A stretch of DNA of 57,358 nt from Patescibacteria group bacterium. Its GTDB lineage: Bacteria; Patescibacteriota; Minisyncoccia; Phycocordibacterales; Phycocordibacteraceae. This document shows positions 37-56,491 of this stretch, piece by piece; the first letter of the stretch is position 1; each line of letters starts with the position of its first letter. The notes below the pieces were generated by a model, which saw only the letters and a list, made by a program, of their open reading frames with translations, was not told where the DNA came from and ran no database searches. The DNA is taken from assembly GCA_040388985.1 (NCBI GenBank), contig JAZKAU010000001.1:1-57358 (forward strand). The letters are read 5' to 3'. Both the position numbers and the translations under genes were made by a program.

Positions 37-223
37 GCGGGCCCAGTAGGAATCGGTCACAGTTTACTAAACTCGAAGACTCGTTAAGTATCTGCGACCC
101 CGCCTCGCTGTCCTCGCAAGGCCTCGGACATGCTCCGGCTTTCGATTCCTACACGCGAGCAAAGCAGTTTGCTCGCTTGGGCCCGCAAATAGAAGAAGCG
201 CTTCTAAAGCGCTTCTTCTATTT
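37..223 (-). repeat. tRNA-Trp-linked palindromic module: displaced direct copy of the tRNA 3' end, ~90-nt conserved core, inverted copy of the tRNA 3' end, and a 26-bp hairpin
   Basis: The 19-nt GCGGGCCCAGTAGGAATCG at 37-55 equals 224-242, the T-loop-to-discriminator part of tRNA-Trp. An inverted copy lies at 143-152 plus 177-186, split by hairpin 155-176. A perfect 26-bp hairpin is formed by 178-203 and 207-232. Core boxes 62-90 and 113-127 are shared with the other tRNA-linked modules and with the repeats at 14143 and 23058. Confidence 0.75.
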
Positions 224-295: not shown

Positions 296-457
296 GAACG
301 AGACAATGCGACTGAATATATTCAGACGAATTCGTCGAGAGAGGGTTCTATATCCGTGCAAGCAACGGATATAGGCCCGTAACTAGGAGAGTAGCAGATT
401 CAGAGACCAAAATACAGGTTCGGCTGCTTGGGGAATCACACTCTTTGGCGCTTATAG

Positions 458-5056: not shown

Positions 5057-5145
5057 TCCGCGCCCTTCTTGGTATCTAAGTATAAGACATGGTCACGAGT
5101 TGCGGATATATTGCTCCAAGTATTCGTTAACTTGCACTAGACTAG

Positions 5146-5307
5146 ATTGGACTTGGCACCCGTCACTAAGCTCGAGGACTCGCTAAGTCCGCCAGCCCGA
5201 GCTCGCGACGCTCGCAAAGCCTCGCATAACGCTCCGCTTTTCAAGTCCCACACAAAGAGCGCGCAGGCGCTCTTCTCTCCAGCCCCTCGCTCACTGCGTT
5301 CGTTCGG
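5146..5307 (-). repeat. tRNA-Leu-linked palindromic module
   Basis: TTCAAGTCCCAC (5240-5251) and CTCCAGC (5277-5283) are reverse complements of the tRNA-Leu T-arm and acceptor 3' strand (5316-5327, 5309-5315). They are split by hairpin 5255-5274. The outer stem pairs 5146-5155 with 5242-5251. Core boxes 5167-5189 and 5211-5225 match the Trp module. Confidence 0.65.
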
Positions 5308-5387
5308 TGCTGGAGGTGGGACTTGAACCCACAACCCGAGGGAGCGGGTTTTGAATCCGCCGCGTATACCGATTCCGCCACTCCAGC
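5308..5387 (-). tRNA. tRNA-Leu: tRNA-Leu (anticodon CAA), long variable arm
   Basis: Acceptor GCTGGAG/CTCCAGC, anticodon loop TTCAAAA, variable arm about TCCCTCGGGTTG, T arm GTGGG-TTCAAGT-CCCAC, discriminator A. There is one A-C mismatch at the base of the anticodon stem. Confidence 0.85.
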
Positions 5388-6522: not shown

Positions 6523-8171
6523 TGCGGCTTCTCCTTTTTCGTTGACTTCTTCTTTCGCGCCTTCACCGGCTTCAGCTCGCCCTTCGGCGATATGGTACCG
6601 CGCTCCGCGTGATCAAGCTTGAGCCGTATATGTCGACGGGCCATGCTGGTGCGCGCATACTCTATCCATTTGGCCGTCGGGTGAGCAGAGGGACGCTCGA
6701 GGATCTCCACGACGTCGCCATTGCGGAGCTGCGTATCGAAGGAGACCATCTTCCCGTTCACTTTCGCGCCGTTCATGTGATGACCCAATTCGCTGTGTAT
6801 AGCGTACGCGAAGTCCACGGGCGTCGAGCTTACCGGCAGGTCGATGACGTCACCCCGCGGCGTGAAGACGAAGACGCGATGCGAGAAGAAGTCTTGGCGC
6901 AGCCCTTCGACGAAATCAGTTGAACCGGCAGTCGGTGCATGCGCGTCAGCAAGCTCTGAAAGCCACGGCGGCGCGACCCGCTGCTTGCTCTTGACCTTCT
7001 TCACTTTTTCTACGGGAGCCGGTGCAGCGTCCCTTGAGCGCAGATGCAGGAGGGTCGGCACGAGTCCGCGCATCCACGAGAAGGAAAGACGCTCGAAGGC
7101 CTGCTTCTGAGCCACTTTTTCGAGCTTCTGCGTCTCTTGTCGCAGCTGCTTGTATGACATGTGCGAGGCGATACCGTATTGCGCTTCCTGATGCATCTCT
7201 TCGGTGCGTACCTGCATCTCGACGATGCCTGCGTCCGGAGTTATCACGGTCGTATGCAGCGACTGATAGCCGTTGGGCTTAGGGAAGGAGATATAGTCCT
7301 TGAATTCGCCCGGAAGGGTCTTCCAGAGCGCGTGGATGACACCGAGCGTCGTATAGCAGTCGTCGATGGTGGGCACGATGACGCGTAACGCAGCTATGTC
7401 ATGTATACGCGTGATGTCGTCGTTCTTGCGCTTGAGTTTCTGATGCAGGCTCCAAAGACCTTTCATGCGGATATCAGTTCGAAAGCCGGTCATGTTGCGG
7501 CGCGCGAGCGCATGCTGCAGATCCCTCTGTACCCGTACGAGCCCGGCCTCGGTCTCCTTAGATTTGAGCTTCCTGACTTCAAGCGCGTGCTGGTAGGCGT
7601 CAGGATCGATGTTAGGAAATGCCAAGTCCTCAAGCTCGCGCTTCATCGCGCCCATTCCGAGTCGGTCAGCGAGCGGCGCGTATATCTCGAGCGTCTCAAG
7701 CGCGATGCGGCGGCGCTTGGCTTCCGGCACATGCTCGAGCGTCGTCATGTTGTGGTAGCGGTCGCAGAGCTTGATGATGAGTACGCGCACATCGGCAGAG
7801 GTAGCGACTAGCAGGCGTCGCAGTGACTCAGCATGACGCTCCGCGCCCTGATACTTGTGCTTGCCGAGCTTGGTCACGCCCTCGACGAGGAAGCGGACAT
7901 CAGGACCGAATTCAGCTTCGATCGTTTCCTCCGAGACCCCGGTGTCCTCGACGCAGTCGTGCAGAAGACCTGCGGCAATGGTATCCGCGTCCATGCCGAG
8001 CTCCGCCAGATGGAGGGCGACTGCTGCAGGATGGAGGAAGTATGCTTCGCCCGAGTAGCGTTTATGGTCCTTATGAGCATTCTCCGAGAAGGCATACGCC
8101 TTCTCGATAAGCGTGATATCCTCCGGATCCGGATCGCGCATGGCCGCCACGATCTGCTTGACGGTAGTCAT
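6519..8171 (-). CDS. Bifunctional (p)ppGpp synthetase/hydrolase, RelA/SpoT family; TGS domain present, no ACT domain
   Basis: HD domain (YFLHPAAVALHL..LLHDCVEDT), synthetase core (YQSLHTTV), and TGS (VFVFTPRGDVIDLP..AYAIHSELG). The start is set at MTTVKQ (8171); the ORF extends to 8276. Confidence 0.9.
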   Translation of the reverse strand: MTTVKQIVAAMRDPDPEDITLIEKAYAFSENAHKDHKRYSGEAYFLHPAAVALHLAELGMDADTIAAGLLHDCVEDTGVSEETIEAEFGPDVRFLVEGVTKLGKHKYQGAERHAESLRRLLVATSADVRVLIIKLCDRYHNMTTLEHVPEAKRRRIALETLEIYAPLADRLGMGAMKRELEDLAFPNIDPDAYQHALEVRKLKSKETEAGLVRVQRDLQHALARRNMTGFRTDIRMKGLWSLHQKLKRKNDDITRIHDIAALRVIVPTIDDCYTTLGVIHALWKTLPGEFKDYISFPKPNGYQSLHTTVITPDAGIVEMQVRTEEMHQEAQYGIASHMSYKQLRQETQKLEKVAQKQAFERLSFSWMRGLVPTLLHLRSRDAAPAPVEKVKKVKSKQRVAPPWLSELADAHAPTAGSTDFVEGLRQDFFSHRVFVFTPRGDVIDLPVSSTPVDFAYAIHSELGHHMNGAKVNGKMVSFDTQLRNGDVVEILERPSAHPTAKWIEYARTSMARRHIRLKLDHAERGTISPKGELKPVKARKKKSTKKEKPH

Positions 8172-15383: not shown

Positions 15384-16415
15384 ATGGCTCATCAATCCTT
15401 ATATCGCACCTATCGCCCAGCAACCTTTGCGGACGTTGCAGGTCAAGAGCAGGTCACGGGACCTTTACGCGAGCAGATAGCAAGCAAGACCGTGGGTCAT
15501 GCGTACCTCTTCGCCGGCTCACGCGGGCTTGGGAAGACCTCCGTAGCGCGCATCTTTGCGCGCGAGCTCGGCGCGTCGAGCAAGGATCTCTATGAGATAG
15601 ATGCCGCATCGAACAACACCGTGGACGACATTCGCGCGCTTACCGAGAACGTCTACACGCTTCCGTTCGAGTCGCCGTATAAGGTCTATATCCTCGACGA
15701 GGCGCACATGCTCTCGAAGTCAGCCTGGAATGCCTTCCTGAAGACGCTCGAGGAGCCGCCCGCACACGCCATCTTCATACTCGCTACGACCGAGCTTGAG
15801 AAGGTGCCCGAGACCGTCCAGTCGCGCTGCCAGGTATTTACATTCAAGAAGCCGTCGCGCGAAGGACTCTCGAAGTTAGTGGCAAGCGTAGCCAAAAAAG
15901 AAGGCTATTCAATCGAGCCCGCAGCAGCCGATCTCATCACGCTCCTAGCCGAAGGCTCGTATCGCGATGCTCTCTCGATACTCGAAAAAGTATGTGCTTC
16001 GTCTCCTGATAAGAAGATTACCCTTGCGGAAACAGAGCAGGCGACAGAAGCGCCACGTCATGCGCTTGTCGAATCCTTTGTTCAGGCGCTTTCGGAAGGT
16101 AGCCAGGAGAACGCGCTTGTCGTTTTGCACACGGTGGGGAGTGAAGACGTCGACGCTGTCCTCTATCTCTCGCTCGTACTCGAATATCTGCGCACCGTGC
16201 TTCTGACGCGTCATGCGTCTGAACTTCGTAAGGAACTTGAGAAAGAGGTAGGACCTGAAGAGTATGGCGCCATACGTGCGCTTGCTGAAGCCAAGGAATC
16301 AAAGATCACGCACCAGACGTTAAAAGTCTTTCTCGATGCCTCTTCACGCATCCGGTTCTCGCCCGTGCCGATGCTTCCGCTCGAGCTCGCCGTATATGAG
16401 CTTTTCGGTGCCTAG
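15384..16415 (+). CDS. dnaX: DNA polymerase III subunit gamma/tau (short form)
   Basis: YRTYRPATFADVAGQE, HAYLFAGSRGLGKTS, and the DEAHML Walker B motif. Confidence 0.9.
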   Translation: MAHQSLYRTYRPATFADVAGQEQVTGPLREQIASKTVGHAYLFAGSRGLGKTSVARIFARELGASSKDLYEIDAASNNTVDDIRALTENVYTLPFESPYKVYILDEAHMLSKSAWNAFLKTLEEPPAHAIFILATTELEKVPETVQSRCQVFTFKKPSREGLSKLVASVAKKEGYSIEPAAADLITLLAEGSYRDALSILEKVCASSPDKKITLAETEQATEAPRHALVESFVQALSEGSQENALVVLHTVGSEDVDAVLYLSLVLEYLRTVLLTRHASELRKELEKEVGPEEYGAIRALAEAKESKITHQTLKVFLDASSRIRFSPVPMLPLELAVYELFGA

Positions 16416-16417
16416 TC

Positions 16418-16735
16418 TTACCTAAGCAGTAGATTCCCGGACGGATTGATAGTTTCGATATCGCCGAGGTCACGGGGAAGTATCTGGTAATTCGCTTGGA
16501 CGTAGCGCAGGTCGTGCCGAAGCTCGCGCGCGATATCTCTACGCTTTTCTTCACCCGCAGCGTTCGAAGCGTCAGTAGCGGTATCTTCCAGAAAGCCCAT
16601 TACGGTCGCGAGGAAGGCGAAGTAGTCGCCGGACCTGATATGAAAGTCGATATTCTTTGGCGAGTCCATCAACAAGCCTACCCTTTCAGTAATCAAATAC
16701 GTACGTGCCATATAAGTACATTGTAAGCGCTCCAC
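16418..16735 (-). CDS. Hypothetical protein
   Basis: Only an ORF, convergent with dnaX. No recognisable motif. An internal ATG at 16711 is an alternative start. Confidence 0.3.
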   Translation of the reverse strand: MERLQCTYMARTYLITERVGLLMDSPKNIDFHIRSGDYFAFLATVMGFLEDTATDASNAAGEEKRRDIARELRHDLRYVQANYQILPRDLGDIETINPSGNLLLR

Positions 16736-16836
16736 ATGTCCATGTCCTTAGCGTCGCATGGGGACAGGGTTGCAACGGGTTTTATAAAGATTTCATCTCC
16801 TTGCCGATTAGCGTGTTTCCCTGCAAGATTACGATA

Positions 16837-16903
16837 TTGGGAGACCATCAATGGTATATCAGCTGCTTCGCAGCAGGAAAGCGACCTTTGAAGTAATCCT
16901 AGA
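16837..16903 (+). pseudogene. Degenerate partial copy of the tRNA-Gln 5' two-thirds, abutting the true gene
   Basis: 16837-16856 matches 16905-16924 at 17 of 20 positions (acceptor 5' strand plus D arm). GCGACCTTTGAAG (16881-16893) matches GCGGCCTTTGAAG (16931-16943), the anticodon arm. A 24-nt hairpin-containing insert lies between them. There is no T-arm 3' half or acceptor 3' strand. Confidence 0.6.
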
Positions 16904-16905
16904 AT

Positions 16906-16976
16906 TGGGAGATCGTCTAATGGTAGGACAGCGGCCTTTGAAGCCGTGAATCTAGGTTCGATCCCTAGTCTCCCAG
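16906..16976 (+). tRNA. tRNA-Gln: tRNA-Gln (anticodon UUG)
   Basis: Acceptor TGGGAGA/TCTCCCA with a U1-A72 pair, anticodon stem GCGGC/GCCGT with loop CTTTGAA, T arm CTAGG-TTCGATC-CCTAG, discriminator G. Confidence 0.9.
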
Positions 16977-17140
16977 CAAATAAAGTGCGTGAGCAATTTT
17001 TTGCTGGGAGAAGTAAGCGTGGGGCGCTTACGGCTAGGGATCGAAGACCTTGTGAGCATTTTCTGAGTCCTCAAAGAAAATACACAAGGTGTACTGATCC
17101 TGTAAGGATCGAAGCGTAGTCGCGGCCCTAGTCTCCCAGC
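16977..17140 (+). repeat. tRNA-Gln-linked palindromic module
   Basis: A 12-bp hairpin pairs 16969-16980 with 17000-17011 and uses the acceptor 3' strand. A second hairpin is at 17013-17031. CTAGGGATCGAA (17034-17045) is the reverse complement of the tRNA T-loop and stem (16957-16968). An ~80-nt core follows. The 15-nt direct repeat CCCTAGTCTCCCAGC occurs at 16963-16977 and 17126-17140. Confidence 0.7.
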
Positions 17141-17193
17141 TAACAATAGTATGCAAACAGAAAGCCCACCGGAGCGGGATTTCCGCCGATGGG

Positions 17194-17499
17194 CTAGATC
17201 GGTACTTCCGGCTCGTTATCGAAGAGCTGAACCCAGCCGAAGAATGCGCGTTTTTCGAAACGATTATTCTTGGTCGTGCCGGACTTGACCCTAAGGTCGA
17301 GTGCATTGGGAATAATGCGCGCAGAATCGAGCGATACGAAATCGTCGCCGAATTGCCTTTGCGCCATCGCCCTGATTCGCGGAAGGAGCTCCTGAATCCG
17401 CTGATTGTCTGCTGGTGGGCTATCCCATGTCTCCGTCCTGATGAGATATCCAGAAGAACCGTCCTTCCGATTGCCATCGTACTCAACAACGATTTTCAT
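17194..17499 (-). CDS. Hypothetical protein (101 aa)
   Basis: The ATG at 17499 is preceded by GGAAGG. No recognisable domain. This is the first gene of the A+T-richer island. Confidence 0.5.
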   Translation of the reverse strand: MKIVVEYDGNRKDGSSGYLIRTETWDSPPADNQRIQELLPRIRAMAQRQFGDDFVSLDSARIIPNALDLRVKSGTTKNNRFEKRAFFGWVQLFDNEPEVPI

Positions 17500-17688
17500 G
17501 AGAACCCTTCCGATTTGAGAAACTAAGGATTCGAGCGAACCCAAGGACATAATACACTTTTGCTACTGCTTAGAAAGGTTCCAATATCGTCCCAGTACGG
17601 GTAGCCGTAGTTGAGATAACTACGGACATATAGGTTCCAACGTTGTCCCACACTGCCAGGCGGAATCGGAAATGGTACTGTAGACATA

Positions 17689-18366
17689 ATGAATACCCCA
17701 TCGATAGTTCCCTATACTGAACGGCTTACCTTGCTCGAATGCCGTCATGAATACGATGAGGTCTTTACCTATATATTCAAGCCAATGAATCCAGTCTCAT
17801 TCACGGCCGGAGAATACGCGCATGTCCGCCTGCTGAACCTTTCCGAAGACATACGGCGCGTACGCGAGTTCTCATTCGCATCTTCTCCGCAGGAATCGGA
17901 GGTCTGGTTTGCTGTCGATGGGAGATCGAAGAGCGAATATCAGCAGGCGTTGCGATCGCTTGCTCCTGGAGATGAGATCGAGATATTCAAGATAAAAGGG
18001 CACATGACCTGGCCGCCTCCCTCTCGTGATGTCGTGATGATCGCAAACGGAGTGGGTGCAGCACCATTCCGCTCGATGCTCCTGGACAAAGTTGAAAGGA
18101 ATCTCTCACTCACAACTACTCTTATAAGCGTGGCGCGGGAATCATTCCTGTATATGGATGAGTTCAGGAATCTTGCCGGAACGTATCTCCCGATACGGCG
18201 CGACCAGCTGGCCGAAACGCTTGAGGAGATTACGGACGAGCATCCGGGTGCTCACTACTGTGTCGCCGGTTCGAGCGATTTCGTACTAGACGTCGTACAG
18301 ACACTTTCAGACAAAGGCATCGTCCGAGTCGAGAGCGATGAATTCAAGGGTCTGCTTAGGGAATAA
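17689..18366 (+). CDS. FNR-like FAD/NAD(P)-binding oxidoreductase
   Basis: RxFS-type FAD motif (VREFSFASSP) and an NAD-binding glycine motif (MIANGVGAAPFRSML). Confidence 0.65.
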   Translation: MNTPSIVPYTERLTLLECRHEYDEVFTYIFKPMNPVSFTAGEYAHVRLLNLSEDIRRVREFSFASSPQESEVWFAVDGRSKSEYQQALRSLAPGDEIEIFKIKGHMTWPPPSRDVVMIANGVGAAPFRSMLLDKVERNLSLTTTLISVARESFLYMDEFRNLAGTYLPIRRDQLAETLEEITDEHPGAHYCVAGSSDFVLDVVQTLSDKGIVRVESDEFKGLLRE

Positions 18367-18458
18367 TAAATAGTGACTTACTCCGTTTCCGTAGAAAAGT
18401 TCCAACCTTGTCCCACACAGTCAGCGGGTCTTCAGTCGAATTAACTATACTTAAAAGT

Positions 18459-18797
18459 ATGATCTTTTCTTACTTCTTGGTCACGTATTCGCTTACCATT
18501 GTTCTTTCTAGAGTCTGGCTGTGGTTCGTGCCTCGACACGCACCACAGATCGGAAACTTTCAGTGGCACCACTGGATGACAGGCGTCCTCCTGATTGTCG
18601 TGTATCTTATATATCCAAATCTATTCTTACTTGCTATTGGTGCCGCATTGATTGTTGATCAGATTCCTCTGTTCTTTATCTTCAAAGGACTTAATTGGCC
18701 CGATGATTGTTGGAAAGAGTATCAATCAGTGTCTTCTACGATAGGGACTTTCCTCGTGTCTCTGATTGTTATGGTTGTATATTTATCAATAGCATAG
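18459..18797 (+). CDS. Hypothetical integral membrane protein (about 4 TM segments)
   Basis: Strongly hydrophobic 112-aa product. The ATG at 18459 is preferred, because the TTG at 18408 lies inside the intergenic motif. Confidence 0.55.
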   Translation: MIFSYFLVTYSLTIVLSRVWLWFVPRHAPQIGNFQWHHWMTGVLLIVVYLIYPNLFLLAIGAALIVDQIPLFFIFKGLNWPDDCWKEYQSVSSTIGTFLVSLIVMVVYLSIA

Positions 18798-18859
18798 CGA
18801 AGGAGAGTTCCAACCTTGTCCCACACTGCCAGCAAGTTAAATTTGATATACTTCTCAAC

Positions 18860-19405
18860 ATGAAAGTAATCCTGTTTGGTGACAGTATGCTTGCCCGATT
18901 CGGTAAAGAGCGTCTCCAAAAACTAGAATCAATGGTGCCGGAAGGTGATTTCTACAACTGTGCTACAGGCGGTTGGGATAGTAATGACTGCGCTATGAAG
19001 GCCCCATATATTGCATCCCTTAAGCCAGACGCGGTCGTCATCTCCGTAGGCACGAATGATGCCTCGCCTTGGAAACAAGTCCCGCTAGAGATTTTTAGAA
19101 ACAACCTATTGAACATTCGCGATAGCTTTAAGGATTCGAAAGTCATTTTCTTTCCACCACCTCCTGTCAACGAAGATAAACAAGCAGGTGAGTTGATAAG
19201 GAGCAACGAATTGATGCAGCAGTATTCCTCCGCTGTAAAAGATGTGTCTTCAAGTGCGGCTGTCGCGTGTATCGACTCGTGGGCAATATTTAGCTCACTT
19301 CTTGAACAAGGTCAGGACTACCATGTTGAGGATGGAGTACATCTCAACGATAATGGGAATGACCTGCTGACTGATCAGCTAGCGGAGGCGCTGAGTTCGA
19401 AATAG
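18860..19405 (+). CDS. SGNH/GDSL-family hydrolase
   Basis: Block I FGDSM, block III GTNDAS, block V DGVHLN. The ATG at 18860 is preferred over the ORF-track start at 18707. Confidence 0.8.
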   Translation: MKVILFGDSMLARFGKERLQKLESMVPEGDFYNCATGGWDSNDCAMKAPYIASLKPDAVVISVGTNDASPWKQVPLEIFRNNLLNIRDSFKDSKVIFFPPPPVNEDKQAGELIRSNELMQQYSSAVKDVSSSAAVACIDSWAIFSSLLEQGQDYHVEDGVHLNDNGNDLLTDQLAEALSSK

Positions 19406-19487
19406 GGTCCCACGTTGTCCCATACGGTAAGCAAACTGAATGTGCGTAAAATATTATTGAGCTTTAGGAAGTTGTATAATCGTACAT

Positions 19488-19916
19488 ATGACGACCCTAA
19501 ACCCTTGGATTAATTTTAATGGCAATGCTGAAGAAGCTTTTAATTTTTACAAGTCAGTCTTTGGCGGCGATTTCAAGAAGATAATCCGCCTCAAAGATCT
19601 TGCCAGTTCTGAGTTCCCGGTTTCGGAAGAAGACGCAAATAAGATACTGCAGATCGTCTTGCCCATAGGTGACTCGAATACATTAATCGGAAATGACGTA
19701 CCCAACTTCATGGGAAAGGTGAGTGAGAATGAGAACAGGAGTAAGGTCCACGTTGCGACCAGCAGCAAAGAAGAAGCTGAGAGGATATTCAACGGTCTTT
19801 CCGTGGGAGCAGATGTAGAGATGCCGATCGGTGAGAGTGCGTGGGGAACCTACTTCGCTATGTTCAGGGACGTGTACGGTATTGAATGGGTCATAGAATT
19901 TGATCCAAGTAACTAA
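19488..19916 (+). CDS. VOC (glyoxalase/PhnB-like) family protein
   Basis: The N-terminus NPWINFNGNAEEAFNFYKSVFGG and the C-terminal WGTYFAMFRDVYGIEW are typical of PhnB-like VOC proteins. Confidence 0.7.
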   Translation: MTTLNPWINFNGNAEEAFNFYKSVFGGDFKKIIRLKDLASSEFPVSEEDANKILQIVLPIGDSNTLIGNDVPNFMGKVSENENRSKVHVATSSKEEAERIFNGLSVGADVEMPIGESAWGTYFAMFRDVYGIEWVIEFDPSN

Positions 19917-19975
19917 GGTCACGCTTATTCCAATATCCTCCCGTGCTGCCGGCCAAGGATGCTAGGATAGGCGTA

Positions 19976-20800
19976 ATGATTGAAGCAATCCCACAGCCTC
20001 AGAAGGAAGAGAACGCTTCTCTGCCGTCTCTGGGAACGGTCGAGCAACTCCTCTCCGAGGAGTTGCGTGGAGCAGAACAAGATCTGGCAATAATAGGCGA
20101 ATCTTTGCGAGCATTTGCGAGGCTCGTAGAAGCAGAGCGTCCTGATGTTCTTGTCTTTCTTGACGTCAGTGTCCGTATCTTCGGTACTCCCTACCTGAAA
20201 TACTTTTCTGAGAGAATGGGAAGAGGTGCTCCCTCGATCCGCTTTTACAATGATCATAATTTGAAGGGCGCCTTTCTGGGATATACGCCTCTAGATCCTA
20301 TAGTTCAGAATGACTTCGAATCACTGAAGGGCAAGAAGGTATTCTTTGTTGACGAGACCTTTTCCGAAGGAAAAGGCGCGCTAGCACTGCTTGAAGCTTC
20401 GTCACGGGCTGGAATCGCGGCTCGCTATATTGCTCTTACTAAAGATCCTGAGCCTCCTTCAAGTAAGATCCTAAATGAGGAGGATGAGATTCTTGTTGAA
20501 CAAGATATAGAGGACGGGAATATTATTATTTACGATCATCCTATTCATAATCTTTTCTCTCGATACGGCAGCAGACTCTACGTTAAAGAGGAAGTGGAAG
20601 GCAAGACTCGTCCCATGCAGGTTTCTCGAGAGAAGGCGACGGCCGCTAGTAGTATCCCTCATGCAGATAGCTATAGTGTGCCCCCAGAAGGCATGTCGAG
20701 TGAAGAGTACCAATTAGCTGTTTCAGCGAAATTCGATGCTAGCGTTAGGGATTTGAAAGAAAAGATCTATCAAACACTTAAGGCTGAAGAGGGCGTATAA
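19976..20800 (+). CDS. Phosphoribosyltransferase-like protein
   Basis: PRPP-loop-like KKVFFVDETFSEGKG, preceded by VLVFLDVSVRIFGTPY. The call is weak. The ATG at 19976 is preferred, because the GTG at 19943 lies inside the intergenic motif. Confidence 0.45.
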   Translation: MIEAIPQPQKEENASLPSLGTVEQLLSEELRGAEQDLAIIGESLRAFARLVEAERPDVLVFLDVSVRIFGTPYLKYFSERMGRGAPSIRFYNDHNLKGAFLGYTPLDPIVQNDFESLKGKKVFFVDETFSEGKGALALLEASSRAGIAARYIALTKDPEPPSSKILNEEDEILVEQDIEDGNIIIYDHPIHNLFSRYGSRLYVKEEVEGKTRPMQVSREKATAASSIPHADSYSVPPEGMSSEEYQLAVSAKFDASVRDLKEKIYQTLKAEEGV

Positions 20801-20901
20801 CGGCTCCAGTATCGCCTGCACCCTAATTTGTCGAGGATAAACAGATCCGGCAATTCCGGACTACGAATGTACAGGGACAAGAATAGTGCTATCGTTTAGG
20901 C

Positions 20902-21648
20902 ATGGCTGAACCTCTTCCAGCGAACGCATTCTTTGATATAAATAAGCTTCCTTCTGAAAAAGGACTGCTTTTGTTCGGTCTTTCGATGAATAAGCTTTTC
21001 TTACGCCAGAGCCCCGAACACTGTGTAGAGGACATTCGACACTTTCACACAGCAAAAGTATCCAAGCCGCTTATCGGCCTGAATTTTATCTACAGTGAAT
21101 TCCTATATCTATACAGCGACAAGCCGGCCCCGGAGTTGAAAGACTCCTTTATGAACCAGATCATTAGTCACAAGAATGGCCTGCAGAATATTCTCGGAAA
21201 GAACAACCTGGATTTCCAGATTCAGCATGCCTTTAACTATATGGCGTGGGCCCAGCTATATGTCGGGACCAAAGACTTTAATCAGCTATTTGCGTCTTTG
21301 AAAAAAATATACGCCACAGACGAACTATTTCAGAGATACATCAAGGAAGACAGTGAGGCATACGGCAGAGAGATGGGAGACAATCAAGTGAATTTCTTTT
21401 TGGAAGAGATTCTCATGTTTCACCTGCTTACCAAGAACCAGGTGAAGCTTCCGAACGAATATATCGAAGGCCAGCAGAAGTGGATACTATACTGCTATCC
21501 TGGCCGTCCGCTCAAGAGTACCGTCTATATGTATCAACTGAATCCCTTTAAGCTCGATTGGAAGGATAACCCGTATCAGAACGCTCACTTTGATCTGGAA
21601 GCCAAGCAACTCATTGAATTTGATAGGGTAGATTTAGAGACCTACTAG
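20902..21648 (+). CDS. Hypothetical protein (248 aa); weak motif-level resemblance to cyclodipeptide synthases
   Basis: LLLFGLSMNKLF (aa 22-33), NFFLEEILMF (aa 164-173) and ILYCYPGRP (aa 195-203) fall at spacings reminiscent of the CDPS Ser / Tyr-x3-Glu / Tyr motifs. See the findings. Confidence 0.6.
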   Translation: MAEPLPANAFFDINKLPSEKGLLLFGLSMNKLFLRQSPEHCVEDIRHFHTAKVSKPLIGLNFIYSEFLYLYSDKPAPELKDSFMNQIISHKNGLQNILGKNNLDFQIQHAFNYMAWAQLYVGTKDFNQLFASLKKIYATDELFQRYIKEDSEAYGREMGDNQVNFFLEEILMFHLLTKNQVKLPNEYIEGQQKWILYCYPGRPLKSTVYMYQLNPFKLDWKDNPYQNAHFDLEAKQLIEFDRVDLETY

Positions 21649-21670
21649 CGCCAATAGCTATATTGAAAGC

Positions 21671-22513
21671 ATGAAGAACTGGCTGGTAACCGGAGGAGAG
21701 GGATTCATCGGAGGAAGGATCGCTAGGGCGACGGGTGCGACGTTATACGACCTGAAATCGGCTAAGGATATTCTCGATACTCAGGAGCTGCTTCAGGCCT
21801 GTGGAGATGTCGACGGGATATTCCACTGCGCGGCCAAGATAAGCGTTCCTGAGAGCTTCCGAGAACCGGAGGAATATCACCTCCATAACGTTCAAGGTAC
21901 GGCGAGCGTTACCCGGGCCGCAAAAGCTAGGAATGCCAAGGTAGTCTTCTCTAGCAGCGCTGCGGTATATGGCGAATCTGATACGCCGGTCCGAGAAACA
22001 GATGCGCTTCACCCGATGTCGCCCTATGCGCAGAATAAGAAGGATGGTGAAGCGCTATTGAAGGAATCAGGAATTCCGTACGCTGTTCTGCGGTATTTCA
22101 ATGTGTACGGCCCTGGCCAATCTGCGGCCTATGCGGGAGTCATTACCATGTTCATTCATAGCGCGCTCAGGAATGAAGATCTTGTCATCTATGGCGACGG
22201 CACCCAGGTGCGCGACTTCGTATATGTCGACGACGTGGTCGCGGCTAATATAAGAGCGATGGAATCAGAGGGCATCTCAGGAGAGACCTTCAATATCGGA
22301 AGCGGAACGATGACTTCTATAGGGCAGCTCGCCGAAGAGATCATCAGGCTTACCGGTTCAGGATCCAGGATTACCTACAAGTCTGCGCGTGAAGGAGATA
22401 TCGTGTACTCCCAGGCTGACGTTTCAATGGCTACGAATATCCTGAATTGGAAGGCATCGGTATCGCTTACGGAAGGGTTGGAGCGAACGATCGAGTCATA
22501 TAGAGATGTGTAA
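21671..22513 (+). CDS. NAD-dependent epimerase/dehydratase (SDR family)
   Basis: VTGGEGFIGGRI Rossmann motif and a YxxxK motif (SPYAQNKKD). Confidence 0.85.
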   Translation: MKNWLVTGGEGFIGGRIARATGATLYDLKSAKDILDTQELLQACGDVDGIFHCAAKISVPESFREPEEYHLHNVQGTASVTRAAKARNAKVVFSSSAAVYGESDTPVRETDALHPMSPYAQNKKDGEALLKESGIPYAVLRYFNVYGPGQSAAYAGVITMFIHSALRNEDLVIYGDGTQVRDFVYVDDVVAANIRAMESEGISGETFNIGSGTMTSIGQLAEEIIRLTGSGSRITYKSAREGDIVYSQADVSMATNILNWKASVSLTEGLERTIESYRDV

Positions 22514-53473: not shown

Positions 53474-54454
53474 GTGCATATGCGAGGTACTGTCGTCGGC
53501 GTGTTGCGTGGAGGACCCTCAAGCGAGCATGACGTCTCGCTCAAGTCAGGTCACGCAATACTGAAGCACCTTCCGGAAGATCGCTTCACTGCCCGCGATA
53601 TCTACATCGACCGTGCAGGCGTCTGGCACGAACGCGGGATTCCGACGAGCCCTGATAAGGTGCTGCCGGGGGTTGATATCGTCGTCATCGCGCTTCATGG
53701 CGCCTATGGCGAGGACGGGGAGGTTCAGAAGCTGCTTGAGCGCTTCGGAGTCCCCTACACCGGATCGGATTCTTTCTCATCCTTCGTTGCCATGCACAAG
53801 GTCATGGCAAAGGAGAAGGCGAAGGAAGTCGGACTCCTTACGCCCAAGTATCGGTTCATAGAGCGTCTTGAAGACGTGGATGATACCGTCCATGACGTCA
53901 TCCGTACCTTCACGCAGCCGGTTATCGTGAAGCCTGCACGCGGCGGCTCGTCGGTAGGCACGACCATGGAGGCCGGGTATCAGCCGGTGCATCAGGCAGT
54001 CACCGGACTGCTCAAGCAAGACGAAGGCGGTGTGCTCGTCGAGGAGGTGATACGCGGCACCGAAGCAACCGCAGGCGTGGTCGAAGGCCTGCGCGGGGAA
54101 GTCCTCTATCAGCTCCCACCTATCGAAATTGTCCCGCCCGAAGATTCAGCCTTCTTTACGTACGACGCCAAATACTCAGGAGCTACCCGCGAGATCTGCC
54201 CTGGGCGCTTCAATAAGCAGGTGAGTCAGGAGCTTATGGACAAGGCCAGGCTTATGCACGATGCTCTAGGTCTGCGCCATTACTCACGCTCCGACTTCAT
54301 CATCTCACCGCGCGGAATCTATTACCTTGAGACCAATAGTCTGCCAGACTTGATCGAGGACTCAGGTTTCTCCGATGCATTCAAAGCAGTAGGCGTAGGC
54401 TATCCCGAATTCCTTTCCCATATAATCGAGCTTGCTTTGCAGAAAAAGAAATAA
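53474..54454 (+). CDS. ddl: D-alanine--D-alanine ligase
   Basis: GGPSSEHDVSLKSG, ALHGAYGEDGEVQKLLE, VKPARGGSSVG and ETNSLP in an ATP-grasp layout. Confidence 0.85.
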   Translation: MHMRGTVVGVLRGGPSSEHDVSLKSGHAILKHLPEDRFTARDIYIDRAGVWHERGIPTSPDKVLPGVDIVVIALHGAYGEDGEVQKLLERFGVPYTGSDSFSSFVAMHKVMAKEKAKEVGLLTPKYRFIERLEDVDDTVHDVIRTFTQPVIVKPARGGSSVGTTMEAGYQPVHQAVTGLLKQDEGGVLVEEVIRGTEATAGVVEGLRGEVLYQLPPIEIVPPEDSAFFTYDAKYSGATREICPGRFNKQVSQELMDKARLMHDALGLRHYSRSDFIISPRGIYYLETNSLPDLIEDSGFSDAFKAVGVGYPEFLSHIIELALQKKK

Positions 54455-54459
54455 TCTTT

Positions 54460-55008
54460 ATGTTTAAAGGTCTTGCATCTAGTCTCTTTTCAAAGAAAAT
54501 AACAGTTGTATATCCGCTTGCTGAAACGGATGCGACGTCGGGAGAAAACTTGATTCCCTTTGTTCCGATTGAACAACGCAGGCGAATCGGGCCTTTCTAC
54601 AGCGATCTTAGTCCTAATTCTCACTACGGGCCATACGAGCATGCCGTGGATTTTCTCGTAAAGGACGGTACGCTCGTGTATGCCGTGAAAAGCGGTACGG
54701 TGGTTGAGATTGTGGAGTCAAATGACGTCTACGGTCCAGGCCCCGACTATGCTCAGTATCTGAATTTTGTAACTATTGATCATGTGAACTGTTATAGCCA
54801 ATATGCTCACCTGAAGAAGGGCTCGCCGACCAGTTACGGCCTATATGTAGGAAAGAAAGTCGTGACTGGCCAGGTCATAGGAATTGTCGGAAAGTCAGGA
54901 TGGGTAGACTATGGAGAGAACGGAGATCACCTACACTTTATGGTCTTCCGGAACGTCAGTGATGGTTTTATAAGCTTACCAGTAGAATTTAAGACGCGTG
55001 TCGTATGA
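54460..55008 (+). CDS. M23 (LytM/lysostaphin-type) metallopeptidase-like protein without an obvious signal peptide
   Basis: HxxxD (HAVDFLV), then QYAHL, then HxH (HLHFMVF). The N-terminus is not clearly hydrophobic. Confidence 0.65.
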   Translation: MFKGLASSLFSKKITVVYPLAETDATSGENLIPFVPIEQRRRIGPFYSDLSPNSHYGPYEHAVDFLVKDGTLVYAVKSGTVVEIVESNDVYGPGPDYAQYLNFVTIDHVNCYSQYAHLKKGSPTSYGLYVGKKVVTGQVIGIVGKSGWVDYGENGDHLHFMVFRNVSDGFISLPVEFKTRVV

Positions 55009-56198
55009 ACGACTTTGAAGGAAAAATAGTAGGTGTTTTCTTTGGCGGAAAGAGTCCGGAGCATGATATTTCGATCATAACGGGCTTGCTTGTGGTTGAA
55101 GAGCTAACGAAGATGGGAATCCGTTGTGAACCTGTTTATATCACGACGGATGGCTCGTGGTGCCTCGGCCATGAGTTACGGGGTAGAGATTTTATGCAAA
55201 GTGTACACTCGAGAGATTTATATGCGTTACAACGTTGGTCTCTCGATACTCGCCATAGGTCGCCCCGTCTTATCTTTACGCGTAGACCCAATTTCTTCTC
55301 GAGGCGTGAGCAGAAAGTCATAGACATCGTCTTCCCAGCATTCCATGGCGCGTATGGAGAAGACGGTGCATTCCAAGGACTTTGCGAAGTCCTTGGCGTG
55401 CCGTATGTCGGGAGCAGTATTGAAGGATGCAGCATGGCAATGAATAAAGCTCTGACCAAAGAGTCTTTTGTTAGCAATCACATACCAACGACCGCGTTTG
55501 TATCTTTTTCAACGCGCGATTGGGAGCATGAGCGTAAGGATGTGCTTAGTACTATCCAAGCTACGCTCACGTACCCTCTCTTTATTAAGCCGGTGCACGC
55601 CGGTTCCTCCATAGGCATCACACGGGTCAAGAATGCTGAAGAGCTTACAGACGCCATTGATCTTGCCTTTAGCTTTGATACTCAAGTCATCGCCGAGAAC
55701 GGAATAGCCGCGGTACGGGATTTGACCTGCTGCGTAAGGGAACTTGCAGACGGGTCGTTGCAAGCCTCAGAAGTGCAAGAGTCCCGCTTCGAAGGAAGCG
55801 ACTTCTTCTCCTACGAAGAGAAATATCTTAAGGGCGGGGGAGCTCAGCTTGGAAACGCAAGACAGCAGATAATTATTCCGGCTGATATATCGAAAGAAGT
55901 AGCAGGTCAGGTAAAGAACTATTCGATACGAGTCTTTAAACGCCTGGGGTTGTCAGGCATAGGACGTGTAGATTTCCTCCTTAATCCGGAAACTTCAGAA
56001 TTGTTTGCAAATGAGGTCAATCCCATGCCTGGAACTCTGTATCAGCATCTTTGGAAAGAAACTGGGGTTGATTCCCCTACCTTGCTTGGTAACTTGCTAT
56101 CAGCCGCAATGACAAAATATACCCAGACTCGCAAGAAAAATACGTATTTCCAGTCCTCACTGCTGCAAGATTTGAAGGGATCGAAGATGGCCAAATAA
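55005..56198 (+). CDS. Second, longer D-Ala-D-X ligase family ATP-grasp enzyme
   Basis: ATGA overlap with the M23 gene's stop. GGKSPEHDISIITG, AFHGAYGEDGAFQGLCEVLGVPYVG, IKPVHAGSSIG and RVDFLL..ANEVNPMPG. It is about 70 aa longer than the first ddl. Confidence 0.75.
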   Translation: MNDFEGKIVGVFFGGKSPEHDISIITGLLVVEELTKMGIRCEPVYITTDGSWCLGHELRGRDFMQSVHSRDLYALQRWSLDTRHRSPRLIFTRRPNFFSRREQKVIDIVFPAFHGAYGEDGAFQGLCEVLGVPYVGSSIEGCSMAMNKALTKESFVSNHIPTTAFVSFSTRDWEHERKDVLSTIQATLTYPLFIKPVHAGSSIGITRVKNAEELTDAIDLAFSFDTQVIAENGIAAVRDLTCCVRELADGSLQASEVQESRFEGSDFFSYEEKYLKGGGAQLGNARQQIIIPADISKEVAGQVKNYSIRVFKRLGLSGIGRVDFLLNPETSELFANEVNPMPGTLYQHLWKETGVDSPTLLGNLLSAAMTKYTQTRKKNTYFQSSLLQDLKGSKMAK

Positions 56199-56241: not shown

Positions 56242-56314
56242 GGGCCGTTAGCTCAGTTGGTAGAGCATCTCATTTGCAATGAGAGGGTCGCAGGTTCGAA
56301 TCCTGTACGGTCCA
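56242..56314 (+). tRNA. tRNA-Ala: tRNA-Ala (anticodon UGC)
   Basis: Acceptor GGGCCGT/ACGGTCC with the G3-U70 wobble pair, D arm GCTC-AGTTGGTA-GAGC, anticodon stem TCTCA/TGAGA with loop TTTGCAA, T arm GCAGG-TTCGAAT-CCTGT, discriminator A. Confidence 0.9.
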
Positions 56315-56491
56315 CAAACGCAACCGCCGAAAGGCGGCTTTTGCGTTTGTGGACCGTAGCATAGTGTCTGCACACTCTGCGGCAGGATTCGAAAGTGGTT
56401 GAGTATGTCGCAGCGAGCCCGAGGCTTTGCGAGAACGAAGCGAGACACGAAACCCATACTGTCCCCGTAAGGGACGAATCCTGTACGGTCA
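56315..56491 (+). repeat. tRNA-Ala-linked palindromic module
   Basis: A 17-bp perfect hairpin pairs 56307-56323 with 56341-56357 and uses the acceptor 3' strand. A second hairpin is at 56363-56376. GCAGGATTCG (56382-56391) is an inverted T-arm copy. The core contains the box CCCGAGGCTTTGCGAG (56418-56433). The 16-nt direct repeat CGAATCCTGTACGGTC occurs at 56297-56312 and 56475-56490. Confidence 0.75.

Follow-up and report, generated by a model that had tools for sequence, protein, structure and literature searches.

The DNA analysed here (the window) is the stretch of 57,358 nucleotides (nt) at the start of contig JAZKAU010000001.1 (GenBank assembly GCA_040388985.1). Its host is a bacterium of the Candidate Phyla Radiation (CPR), of the Paceibacteria/Minisyncoccia type. 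In the window, an intact tRNA-Gln(UUG) gene is abutted on its 5' side by a degenerate stump of a tRNA-Gln gene, and is followed on its 3' side by a gene-less module that ends in a second copy of the tRNA 3' end (Table 1). Such modules stand behind the other tRNA genes of the window as well. The gene order serS-...-dus-dnaX-tRNA-Gln, which leads up to the locus, is kept in some 25 related genomes. The relatives are distant, with at most 73% identity between the DnaX of the window (15384-16415) and those of the nearest species representatives, L002-L005. L-numbers (L002, L005, L180 etc.) are our labels for comparison contigs from relatives and metagenomes.

Table 1 Features of the tRNA-Gln locus, and the modules behind the other tRNA genes of the window. 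R1 is a covariance model of the module family, built from an alignment of 61 left halves, mainly of metagenome members.
Feature	Position	Strand	Evidence
Promoter-like upstream block (CTTGCCG ... GCAAGATTA)	16800-16831	+	Aligns with a block in L003, L006, L007 and L010
Putative 5' pseudo-fragment (stump) of an ancestral tRNA-Gln	16838-16905	+	Alignment score 33; same architecture in L005
Intact tRNA-Gln(UUG)	16906-16976	+	ARAGORN; Rfam RF00005, 63.8 bits
Spacer (S), loop of the acceptor/inverted-copy hairpin	16978-17002	+	Repeat search; homologous to the L005 spacer
Inverted copy of the acceptor 3' strand, discriminator and N74 (B-acc; GCTGGGAGA)	17003-17011	+	
Hairpin H1 (GTAAGCG-TGGGG-CGCTTAC), splits the inverted copy at the 65/66 junction	17013-17031	+	
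Inverted copy of the T stem 3' strand and T loop (B-T; CTAGGGATCGAA)	17034-17045	+	12/12 complementary
Decayed module core	17046-17125	+	Family model 10.3 bits, E 0.86; alignment to the L005 module
Direct copy of tRNA positions 60-74 (C; CCCTAGTCTCCCAGC), right module boundary	17126-17140	+	Exact repeat
Intrinsic terminator of the convergent open reading frame (ORF) 17194-17550(-)	17158-17190	-	Terminator scan; ORF list
Canonical module behind tRNA-Trp (224-295, -)	37-223	-	R1 79.9 bits, in training set
Module behind tRNA-Leu(CAA) (5306-5387, -)	5140-5305	-	R1 44.3 bits, E 3e-9, untrained
Module behind tRNA-Ala(UGC) (56242-56315)	56316-56490	+	R1 33.5 bits, E 2e-6, untrained

The intact gene cleared the gathering threshold (29 bits) of the tRNA model RF00005 of Rfam 15, the release used throughout. 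Its sequence is identical to that of the tRNA-Gln of L006 and L010, and it does not encode the terminal CCA. The last 15 nt of the tRNA (16963-16977, positions 60-74) form copy A of a direct repeat, whose second copy is the distal end of the module. The repeat is exact, is found nowhere else in the window, and extends to 21 nt at 90% identity.

The stump begins with tRNA positions 1-19 (TGGGAGACCATCAATGGTA, 16838-16856). After an insert in the D loop (TATCAGCTGCTTCGCAGC, 16857-16874), which itself forms a GCTGC/GCAGC hairpin, it continues with positions 20-38 (AGGAAAGCGACCTTTGAAG, 16875-16893). It closes with TAATCCTAGAAT (16894-16905), a degenerate remnant of the variable region and T stem plus the junction, directly at the first base of the intact gene. 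A preliminary description of this DNA, made from the letters alone, had listed this fragment, the hairpin that uses the acceptor 3' strand, the inverted copy of the T loop and stem, and the distal 15-nt repeat. All four were recovered in place; the insert was present too, with a size of 18-19 nt rather than the 24 nt first given.

In a gapped local alignment of the stump with tRNA-Gln (positions 1-38, one gap), the score was 33. Shuffled sequences had a mean score of 14.4 (standard deviation 2.2) and none of 1000 reached 33, so the resemblance noticed earlier is significant in a formal alignment. RF00005, in contrast, gave no match at 16837-16905 even at an expect value (E) of ≤10. The stump is thus a pseudo-fragment, recognisable solely by alignment to the adjoining gene. 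An independent Logan contig from sample SRR26324622 was identical across it. When the whole window was scanned with tRNA-Gln, the top non-tRNA matches were the stump, the inverted copy and the direct copy (scores 33, 30 and 25.5, against a background of ~24), all three within 170 nt of the gene.

A conserved, promoter-like block (CTTGC..GCARGATTA) is found directly 5' of the intact tRNA-Gln gene in L003, L006, L007 and L010. In the window, it stands directly 5' of the stump instead; a sigma-70 consensus scan did not flag it at 16800-16831. Because this block comes right before the stump, the view that the stump is the remnant of an older tRNA-Gln gene at the ancestral position, already put forward in the preliminary description, is supported by the sequence comparison.

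A cleaner form of the same architecture was found in L005. There, tRNA positions 1-20 are followed by a 69-nt D-loop insert, then by positions 16-40 and a remnant up to GTTCGAT (~position 59). Five bases later come an intact tRNA-Gln and its module, and then TCCAAGTTCCCCAGC, which begins at position 60. The layout is therefore that of an old gene (positions 1-59, insert, positions 60-74) split between 59 and 60 by a segment that bears a whole tRNA-Gln, which is the event that had been proposed for the window. The two loci are homologous, as seen from the alignment of the spacer and of the core remnants of the module. Measured against the refuting condition set in the preliminary description, the relatives give a mixed answer. 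Most have a single, uninterrupted tRNA-Gln gene; L005 has the same pseudo-fragment architecture as the window, among different neighbouring genes.

A second family of small inserts (AGCAGAGCTTTCTG..GCGCTCGCTCGGAA..hairpin..CTCGCTCGCTTGG) interrupts dead tRNA-Gln copies behind position 20, in their D loop, and in one case is found within a T-loop module. Its members are in L005 (11909-11977), L015 (11946-12019 and 12092-12138), L029 (reverse complement, 6927-6996 and 7069-7111) and L022 (11522-11582). In L015 and L029, an intact tRNA-Gln is carried in the tip of the hairpin. The insert of the window stump has the same D-loop position and may be a remnant of this family.

Directly 3' of the intact gene, the segment 16978-17140 is organised around copies of the tRNA 3' end. 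A hairpin with 15-nt arms (16969-16983 and 16997-17011, 93% complementary) joins the acceptor 3' strand to its inverted copy. The inverted copy as a whole (17003-17045) is split by H1, whose loop departs from the CTGC usual in the family, and ends in TCGAA. Its distal part is the exact reverse complement of TTCGATCCCTAG (16957-16968). On the minus strand, from 17045 to 17003, the order is T loop and T stem, a 22-nt hairpin, and acceptor 3' strand. The core contains a long hairpin (17047-17090) and GAGCATTTTC, a remnant of the family motif GGAGCATGT that aligns with GGAGCATGTTC of L005. At its right end, GGATCGAAGCGTAGTCGCGG (17106-17125) resembles GGAGAnAAGCGTAATCGCGG, the end of subtype-iii modules. 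The direct copy starts at position 60, as is typical for one module subtype, and with the end of the stump this places both junctions at the T loop, as had been described.

Modules of this family, which are common 3' of tRNA genes in Paceibacteria-like CPR bacteria, are ~140-190 nt long and carry no gene. Their order is: a spacer, often a terminator hairpin; the inverted acceptor 3' strand; H1, usually with a CTGC loop; the inverted T stem and T loop, ending in TCGAA, which is invariant; a core of ~85 nt; and the tRNA 3' end once more, as a direct copy with its start in the T loop. The inverted copy represents the last ~20 nt of the tRNA and is split by the covarying H1. This architecture is present downstream of each tRNA gene in the window (Trp, Leu, Gln and Ala), as had been stated in the preliminary description. 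The Trp module is complete, with a palindromic terminator, B-acc, H1 with a CTGC loop, B-T, core, and CGATTCCTACTGGGCCCGC as a perfect 19-nt direct copy. In the Leu module, the direct copy has decayed and the inverted copy is perfect. The Leu and Ala modules were the sole strong untrained matches of R1 in the 57 kb.

The Gln copy is the most divergent of the four, again as first described, with 10.3 bits against 33-80 bits. Its counterpart in L005 reached 89.7 bits with R1. The location directly 3' of the tRNA, the split inverted copy with its TCGAA end, and the direct copy with its right end and its start in the T loop are all present. The conserved core (MGCCGGAGCATGT - H2 - ACRGCGAGGCGG, with a significant R1 score) is not (10.3 bits, E 0.86), so the Gln copy was filed as a decayed relic and not as an intact member. 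To judge from its sequence, the segment downstream of tRNA-Gln is a decayed member of the tRNA 3'-end module family, with the outer architecture kept and the core lost.

Rfam at E ≤10 returned nothing for the Gln region beyond the tRNA gene, and returned only microRNA-like palindrome matches for the Trp module. The module family is not in Rfam 15, and no description of it was found in the full-text literature searched. Promoter and terminator scans were uninformative for the orientation of the modules.

Among the related genomes, modules stand behind tRNA-Gln or tRNA-Leu in L005, L008, L015, L018, L022 and L033, and are absent from the orthologous tRNA genes of L003, L004, L006, L007, L009, L010, L027 and L034. 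A metagenome scan with the most conserved 18-mer gave at least 84 genuine modules of three subtypes, among 124 matches listed (at least 120 loci); the tRNAs in front of them cover nearly every specificity. R1 had 101 matches in 603 kb of contigs with modules, and 84 of these were located 3' of a tRNA gene of the same orientation, at a distance of at most 260 nt, with nearly all isoacceptors represented. Occupancy was patchy: on contigs picked for having a module, 87 of 161 tRNA genes had one and 74 did not. A strict parser for inverted plus direct copies recovered 23 of 82 modules and was not used. In viral contigs, the 18-mer had two matches, both in coding-like sequence and attributable to chance, and a pattern matching only the L008 subtype had 84, none near a tRNA.

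Some module-free genes differ from the others at their 3' end. In six of them (L003, L004, L007-L010), tRNA-Gln is encoded with CCA and followed by a conserved hairpin of ~40 nt (A.GTG.TAGGTT.T.GCG..). Full CCA is encoded by none of the four window tRNA genes and by no module-bearing tRNA-Gln gene; it is missing from some module-free genes as well. One module (1873-1964 in L245; L245/L255) follows a sequence ending in ..CCGCCTCTCGAGGGGACAA, which ARAGORN did not call a tRNA, and a second module is found ~400 nt upstream. This module may stand behind a non-tRNA gene or a heavily altered tRNA-like gene.

The structure of the modules is strongly conserved. In the 61 left halves, H1 and H2 covary: 95.7% of the cells are paired, and the covariation score is 0.54 (shuffles, 0.14). 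All nine stem pairs covary, and the position of H1 is conserved. The unpaired nucleotides include invariant ones, among them those of an internal loop, GAGC/GCGA, with a tandem G.A motif. Trimmed left halves were required for this analysis; MAFFT and RNAalifold on nine heterogeneous whole modules predicted no structure. Cores at unrelated tRNAs are up to 93% identical. For this, modules must either have spread between tRNA genes and had their tRNA-specific parts matched anew, or have undergone gene conversion of their cores.

It is the live tRNA that the inverted copy tracks. Where the live tRNA and the displaced copy disagree, its complementarity is to the former in 32 cases and to the latter in 4. 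At wobble positions, which include G3:U70 of tRNA-Ala, the inverted copy forms a Watson-Crick pair with the 3' strand in 16 cases and has the base of the tRNA 5' strand in 5. Its pairing extends to the discriminator and N74 and, in many cases, to the trailer. This Watson-Crick bias and the pairing with the discriminator and N74 argue that the inverted copy acts like a second strand of the tRNA gene 3' end, and not like part of a tRNA-like RNA. For the same reasons, and because it tracks the live tRNA, a selected tRNA-like RNA minihelix formed by the inverted and direct copies was ruled out as the principal explanation. The behaviour of the inverted copy suggests that it may be part of a folded, single-stranded attachment site, of the kind known from CTX-phi and the integron attC site.

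Several loci carry footprints of recombination in the T loop. In 43 of 47 distinct members, the match of the direct copy to the tRNA begins at position 56, 57 or 59-61 (at 59-61 in 15 of the 47). A filled site in L033, with a 94-nt insert and a 19-nt repeat of the tRNA end, has empty counterparts in L034 and L027. Tandem copies of modules were found in L008, L191, L257 and L262. In L180 (reverse strand, 574-1000), positions 40-60 of a tRNA-Pro are joined to positions 61-74 of a tRNA-Gly within a shared AGTTCGATTCTC. The chimera is followed by a Gly-type spacer, inverted copy and core ending in GTGAC, which is joined to positions 56-74 of tRNA-Pro. A near-identical, donor-like Gly module is situated 1.4 kb away on the same contig. 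Such a layout is what one expects if a looped-out Gly module underwent reciprocal exchange with a Pro gene, in the T loop of the latter, and the crossover fell within AGTTCGATTCTC. Together, the filled and empty sites, the tandem copies and the Pro/Gly chimera indicate T-loop recombination by what would be a gene-less element mobilised in trans.

Dead tRNA genes and intact replacements occur side by side in this lineage. The L180 chimera is dead, and in its anticodon loop (36/40) an intact tRNA-Pro is flanked by inverted repeats. Similar intact tRNA cassettes are present in the D loops of dead tRNA-Gln copies in L029 and L015. At the tRNA-Leu(CAA) locus, L237 and L221 are 95-97% identical in the flanks and the module and only ~75% identical in the tRNA-Leu itself, with boundaries at the tRNA ends; this looks like a precise, cassette-like replacement of the tRNA gene. 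The parts of the L221/L237 module that match the tRNA retain the old tRNA type. Evidently, tRNA genes of this lineage are broken and rebuilt, and the stump in the window fits this pattern.

For the Gln locus, we therefore favour, with somewhat more confidence than doubt, the reading that the tRNA-Gln gene was rebuilt after an insertion into its T loop, and that the segment behind it is a worn copy of a mobile module. In the mechanism we envisage, a circular or looped-out module would recombine with the T loop of a tRNA gene in a conservative exchange of the Campbell type. The module would donate its own positions 56/60-74, whereby the tRNA is regenerated and the old 3' end is displaced downstream. 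The footprints support these two steps. A recombinase would have to act in trans, since the modules carry no gene, and the inverted copy may let a single-stranded module fold into a mimic of its double-stranded target, like the attP hairpin of CTX-phi or the integron attC site. At the Gln locus of the window and L005, the inserted segment would have borne a whole tRNA-Gln, and the core would later have decayed in the window lineage. The outcome would be an ancestral first ~55 nt, left behind the original promoter as a decaying leader, followed by the replacement gene and the module 16978-17140, which ends in the old positions 60-74.

Extended to the whole family, this would mean that the modules are an undescribed class of structured mobile elements without genes, which target the T loop of CPR tRNA genes and use their hairpin-split, fully Watson-Crick inverted copy as a folded single-strand mimic of the tRNA gene 3' end, that together with the tRNA cassettes flanked by inverted repeats they drive a cassette-like turnover and rebuilding of tRNA genes, and that the Gln locus is a fossil of one such cycle. 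We put this forward as a tentative proposal, with doubt prevailing.

A number of observations weigh against mobility. No integrase, transposase or reverse transcriptase is encoded next to any module of the window, no recombinase was found in the annotated parts of the window, and no cargo-bearing or autonomous version was seen among about 100 modules. The recombinase is thus purely hypothetical. Neither an excised circle nor an empty allele of this Gln locus was seen. Stumps on the 5' side are rare (only L180/L215 among about 60 family loci), so the usual event brings no whole tRNA. The arrangement is common to the window and L005 at only 73% DnaX identity, which implies either long vertical inheritance or two separate gains. 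When a module jumps to another tRNA, the product is a dead chimera, as in L180, and alone this leaves the matching of inverted copies to so many tRNAs unexplained. Finally, the conserved internal loop and the covarying hairpins have the look of an RNA with a function, or of a structure that binds a protein.

These last points lead to the best-surviving alternative, in which the modules are resident, functional structured elements of tRNA transcription units that are passed on vertically, with selection and gene conversion maintaining their similarity inside each genome. They could be cis-acting RNAs, tRNA-linked small RNAs or protein-binding platforms for termination, 3' processing or tRNA control; L180 would then be an occasional ectopic accident, and the Gln copy a member that has lost its function. 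The strong covariation around invariant unpaired nucleotides and the tandem G.A motif would be readily understood in this way. The same holds for the inverted copy, which keeps its complementarity to the live tRNA as the direct copy decays, and for the spacer, often an intrinsic terminator whose stem is continuous with the pairing of tRNA and inverted copy. Also in its favour are the orthologous arrangement kept by the window and L005 despite their deep divergence, the presence of a module at each of the four window tRNAs, and the absence of any mobility gene found. Resident elements are harder to reconcile with patchy occupancy within and between genomes, with the filled and empty pair of sites and identical copies in tandem, and with a Gly module inside the tRNA-Pro gene of L180. 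The closing helix with the direct copy is not kept, and the Gln, Leu and other copies decay while their tRNAs persist. An inverted copy that pairs the discriminator and N74 and removes wobbles is better explained by mimicry of a DNA duplex than by a tRNA-like RNA. We regard a purely resident function as rather unlikely.

A different origin of the stump is conceivable even if the modules are what the favoured reading takes them to be. The stump could be a local, partial tandem duplication of the tRNA gene (about -3 to +55/59), through an event such as template switching or illegitimate recombination at the T loop, after which the upstream copy decayed while gene conversion preserved its likeness to the live gene. 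In the window and in L005, the stump and the intact gene are preceded by a few similar bases (ATTGGGAGA; TTTGGGGGA), the stump of each lineage shares lineage-specific bases with its own intact gene, and 5' stumps are rare in the family, all of which would suit a duplication. A duplication does not predict, however, that in L005 the stump breaks off at position 59 and the distal copy resumes at 60, as a clean insertion does. Nor can tandem duplication account for intact cassettes with inverted repeats inside dead copies (the D loops of L029 and L015, the anticodon loop of L180), and L237 is a precise replacement of a tRNA gene between nearly identical flanks. This route to the stump appears improbable to us.

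The preliminary description had further taken the locus for the left edge of an A+T-richer island, with the 15-nt repeat as its junction. In such a classical arrangement, the repeat would be the attL/attR pair of an integrase-mobilised island, and 17.1-23.1 kb the island or what remains of it. The A+T-richer stretch itself is real, with a GC content that drops to about 46% at 18-22 kb, from about 55% around it. The content 3' of tRNA-Gln differs in every relative, the nearest of which have only about 73% DnaX identity, while the upstream synteny (serS-...-dus-dnaX) is conserved, and accessory or defence-like genes follow tRNA-Gln in L015 and L018. The repeat copies, however, are 163 nt apart from start to start and enclose 148 nt, with the A+T-richer region outside. 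A search of the window found no third copy at or near 23 kb, and Pfam found no integrase or other mobility gene among the ORFs of 17194-22513. The VOC and GDSL genes are 60-64% identical to homologues 3' of tRNA-Gln in L006, about as diverged as core genes. For these reasons, the region 3' of tRNA-Gln is, on sequence grounds, a variable region, and the 15-nt repeat is the end of a miniature module rather than an island attachment site or junction; a mobilised island is very improbable here. The geometry of casposon-type or staggered-cut target duplication, IS200/IS605, IS110 bridge RNA, retrons, group II introns and known ribozymes does not fit, and none of these was detected.

The low-GC block (17689-22513, 46%) encodes an FAD/NAD-binding-like (oxidoreductase-like) protein, a membrane protein, a GDSL lipase, a VOC/glyoxalase protein, an NAD-dependent epimerase and two proteins without a Pfam match. 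On both sides of the tRNA-Gln locus there are small ORFs, likewise without a Pfam match. Homologues of 16418-16735(-), 42-54% identical, occupy the same place in L002 and L006. The other, 17194-17550(-), had no exact match in the public gene index and has its own terminator, which shows that the neighbouring gene begins right behind the module. Elsewhere in the window, two paralogues with a type IV secretion pilin domain (PF18895; 458-1555 and 2118-3089) enclose a protein without a Pfam match, and an M23 peptidase gene is located between two D-Ala-D-Ala ligase paralogues (53474-56198), directly 5' of tRNA-Ala.

A second stump was considered 5' of tRNA-Trp (window 296-420, minus-strand gene). 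It consists of GGGCCTATA (tRNA-Trp positions 1-9), a hairpin and TAGAAC, ~80 nt 5' of the gene. The similarity was not significant (79 of 1000 shuffles reached the score), and the candidate was rejected.

Exact-protein look-ups returned only two short Logan contigs, both from SRR26324622. They break off at window positions 16940, in tRNA-Gln, and 17043, in the inverted T-loop copy. Metagenome contigs often terminate at modules. Repeats break short-read assembly and may conceal strain variation.

The closest known systems are the integrase-mobilised islands and integrative elements at tRNA genes, which occupy sublocations in the T loop and at the 3' end. They include the tycheposons of Prochlorococcus, for which integration into tRNA genes, partial tRNAs and serial integrations have been described (preprint 10.1101/2020.12.28.424599). 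Like the modules, these elements insert at a tRNA gene, regenerate its 3' end and leave a displaced partial tRNA downstream, and they form serial or tandem integrations and decayed remnants with partial tRNAs. The modules differ in their size of ~140-190 nt, in the lack of integrase and cargo, and in the occurrence of one family at nearly every tRNA specificity. They also bear a hairpin-split inverted copy of the target and a covarying structured core.

We know of no tRNA-island attachment site with any of these features, and, to our knowledge, the modules have no autonomous parent. Archaeal split tRNA genes and those with non-canonical introns, and the TRE elements of Dictyostelium, which are eukaryotic retrotransposons targeted to tRNA genes, provide other cases in which tRNA genes are interrupted or serve as preferred landing sites. 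In general terms, archaeal fragmented tRNAs and TRE elements resemble the lineage studied here in interruptions at the D, anticodon and T loops. Here, however, the interrupted copies are dead and are accompanied by an intact one, neither a splicing motif nor a sign of a reverse transcriptase was found, and the host is a bacterium.

Miniature inverted-repeat transposable elements (MITEs) and cis-mobilisable elements (CIMEs), the latter flanked by attachment sites, are non-autonomous derivatives of mobile elements. They are likewise short, gene-less, present in several copies per genome, presumably moved in trans, found in tandem and subject to decay. The modules have neither a fixed terminal inverted repeat nor a short target-site duplication, and their ends are set by the neighbouring tRNA sequence. 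These ends differ from tRNA to tRNA, the repeats are 15-19 nt of tRNA sequence, and the junction is in the T loop, so the modules do not qualify as MITEs.

A folded site is known from the CTX-phi attP(+) site used by XerCD, in which two inverted copies of the site are reported to fold into a duplex that mimics the chromosomal target (PMC3442271). This site and the integron attC share with the modules the spacing of inverted copies by tens of nt, the position of an inverted copy next to the regenerated direct site after integration, and an unpaired or branched feature that interrupts one strand, a place taken in the modules by H1. The target of the modules is the T loop of a tRNA, not dif or attI, and there is no phage, integron integrase or cassette gene. 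The likeness is one of geometry and analogy only.

For integrative elements, tRNA genes are classic sites of insertion, and the examples known are gene-carrying islands with their own integrase. The modules are tiny, gene-less and strongly structured, stand at almost every tRNA specificity of a major uncultured lineage, and are associated with dead and rebuilt tRNA genes. On either reading, they explain assembly breaks at tRNA genes in CPR metagenomes, and the partial tRNA repeats found there should not be annotated as island borders. If the modules are functional RNAs instead of mobile elements, they constitute a new tRNA-linked RNA family. If they are mobile, they point to a recombinase that acts in trans on tRNA T loops, and may point to a folded-DNA attachment site and to an unrecognised turnover of tRNA genes in streamlined genomes.

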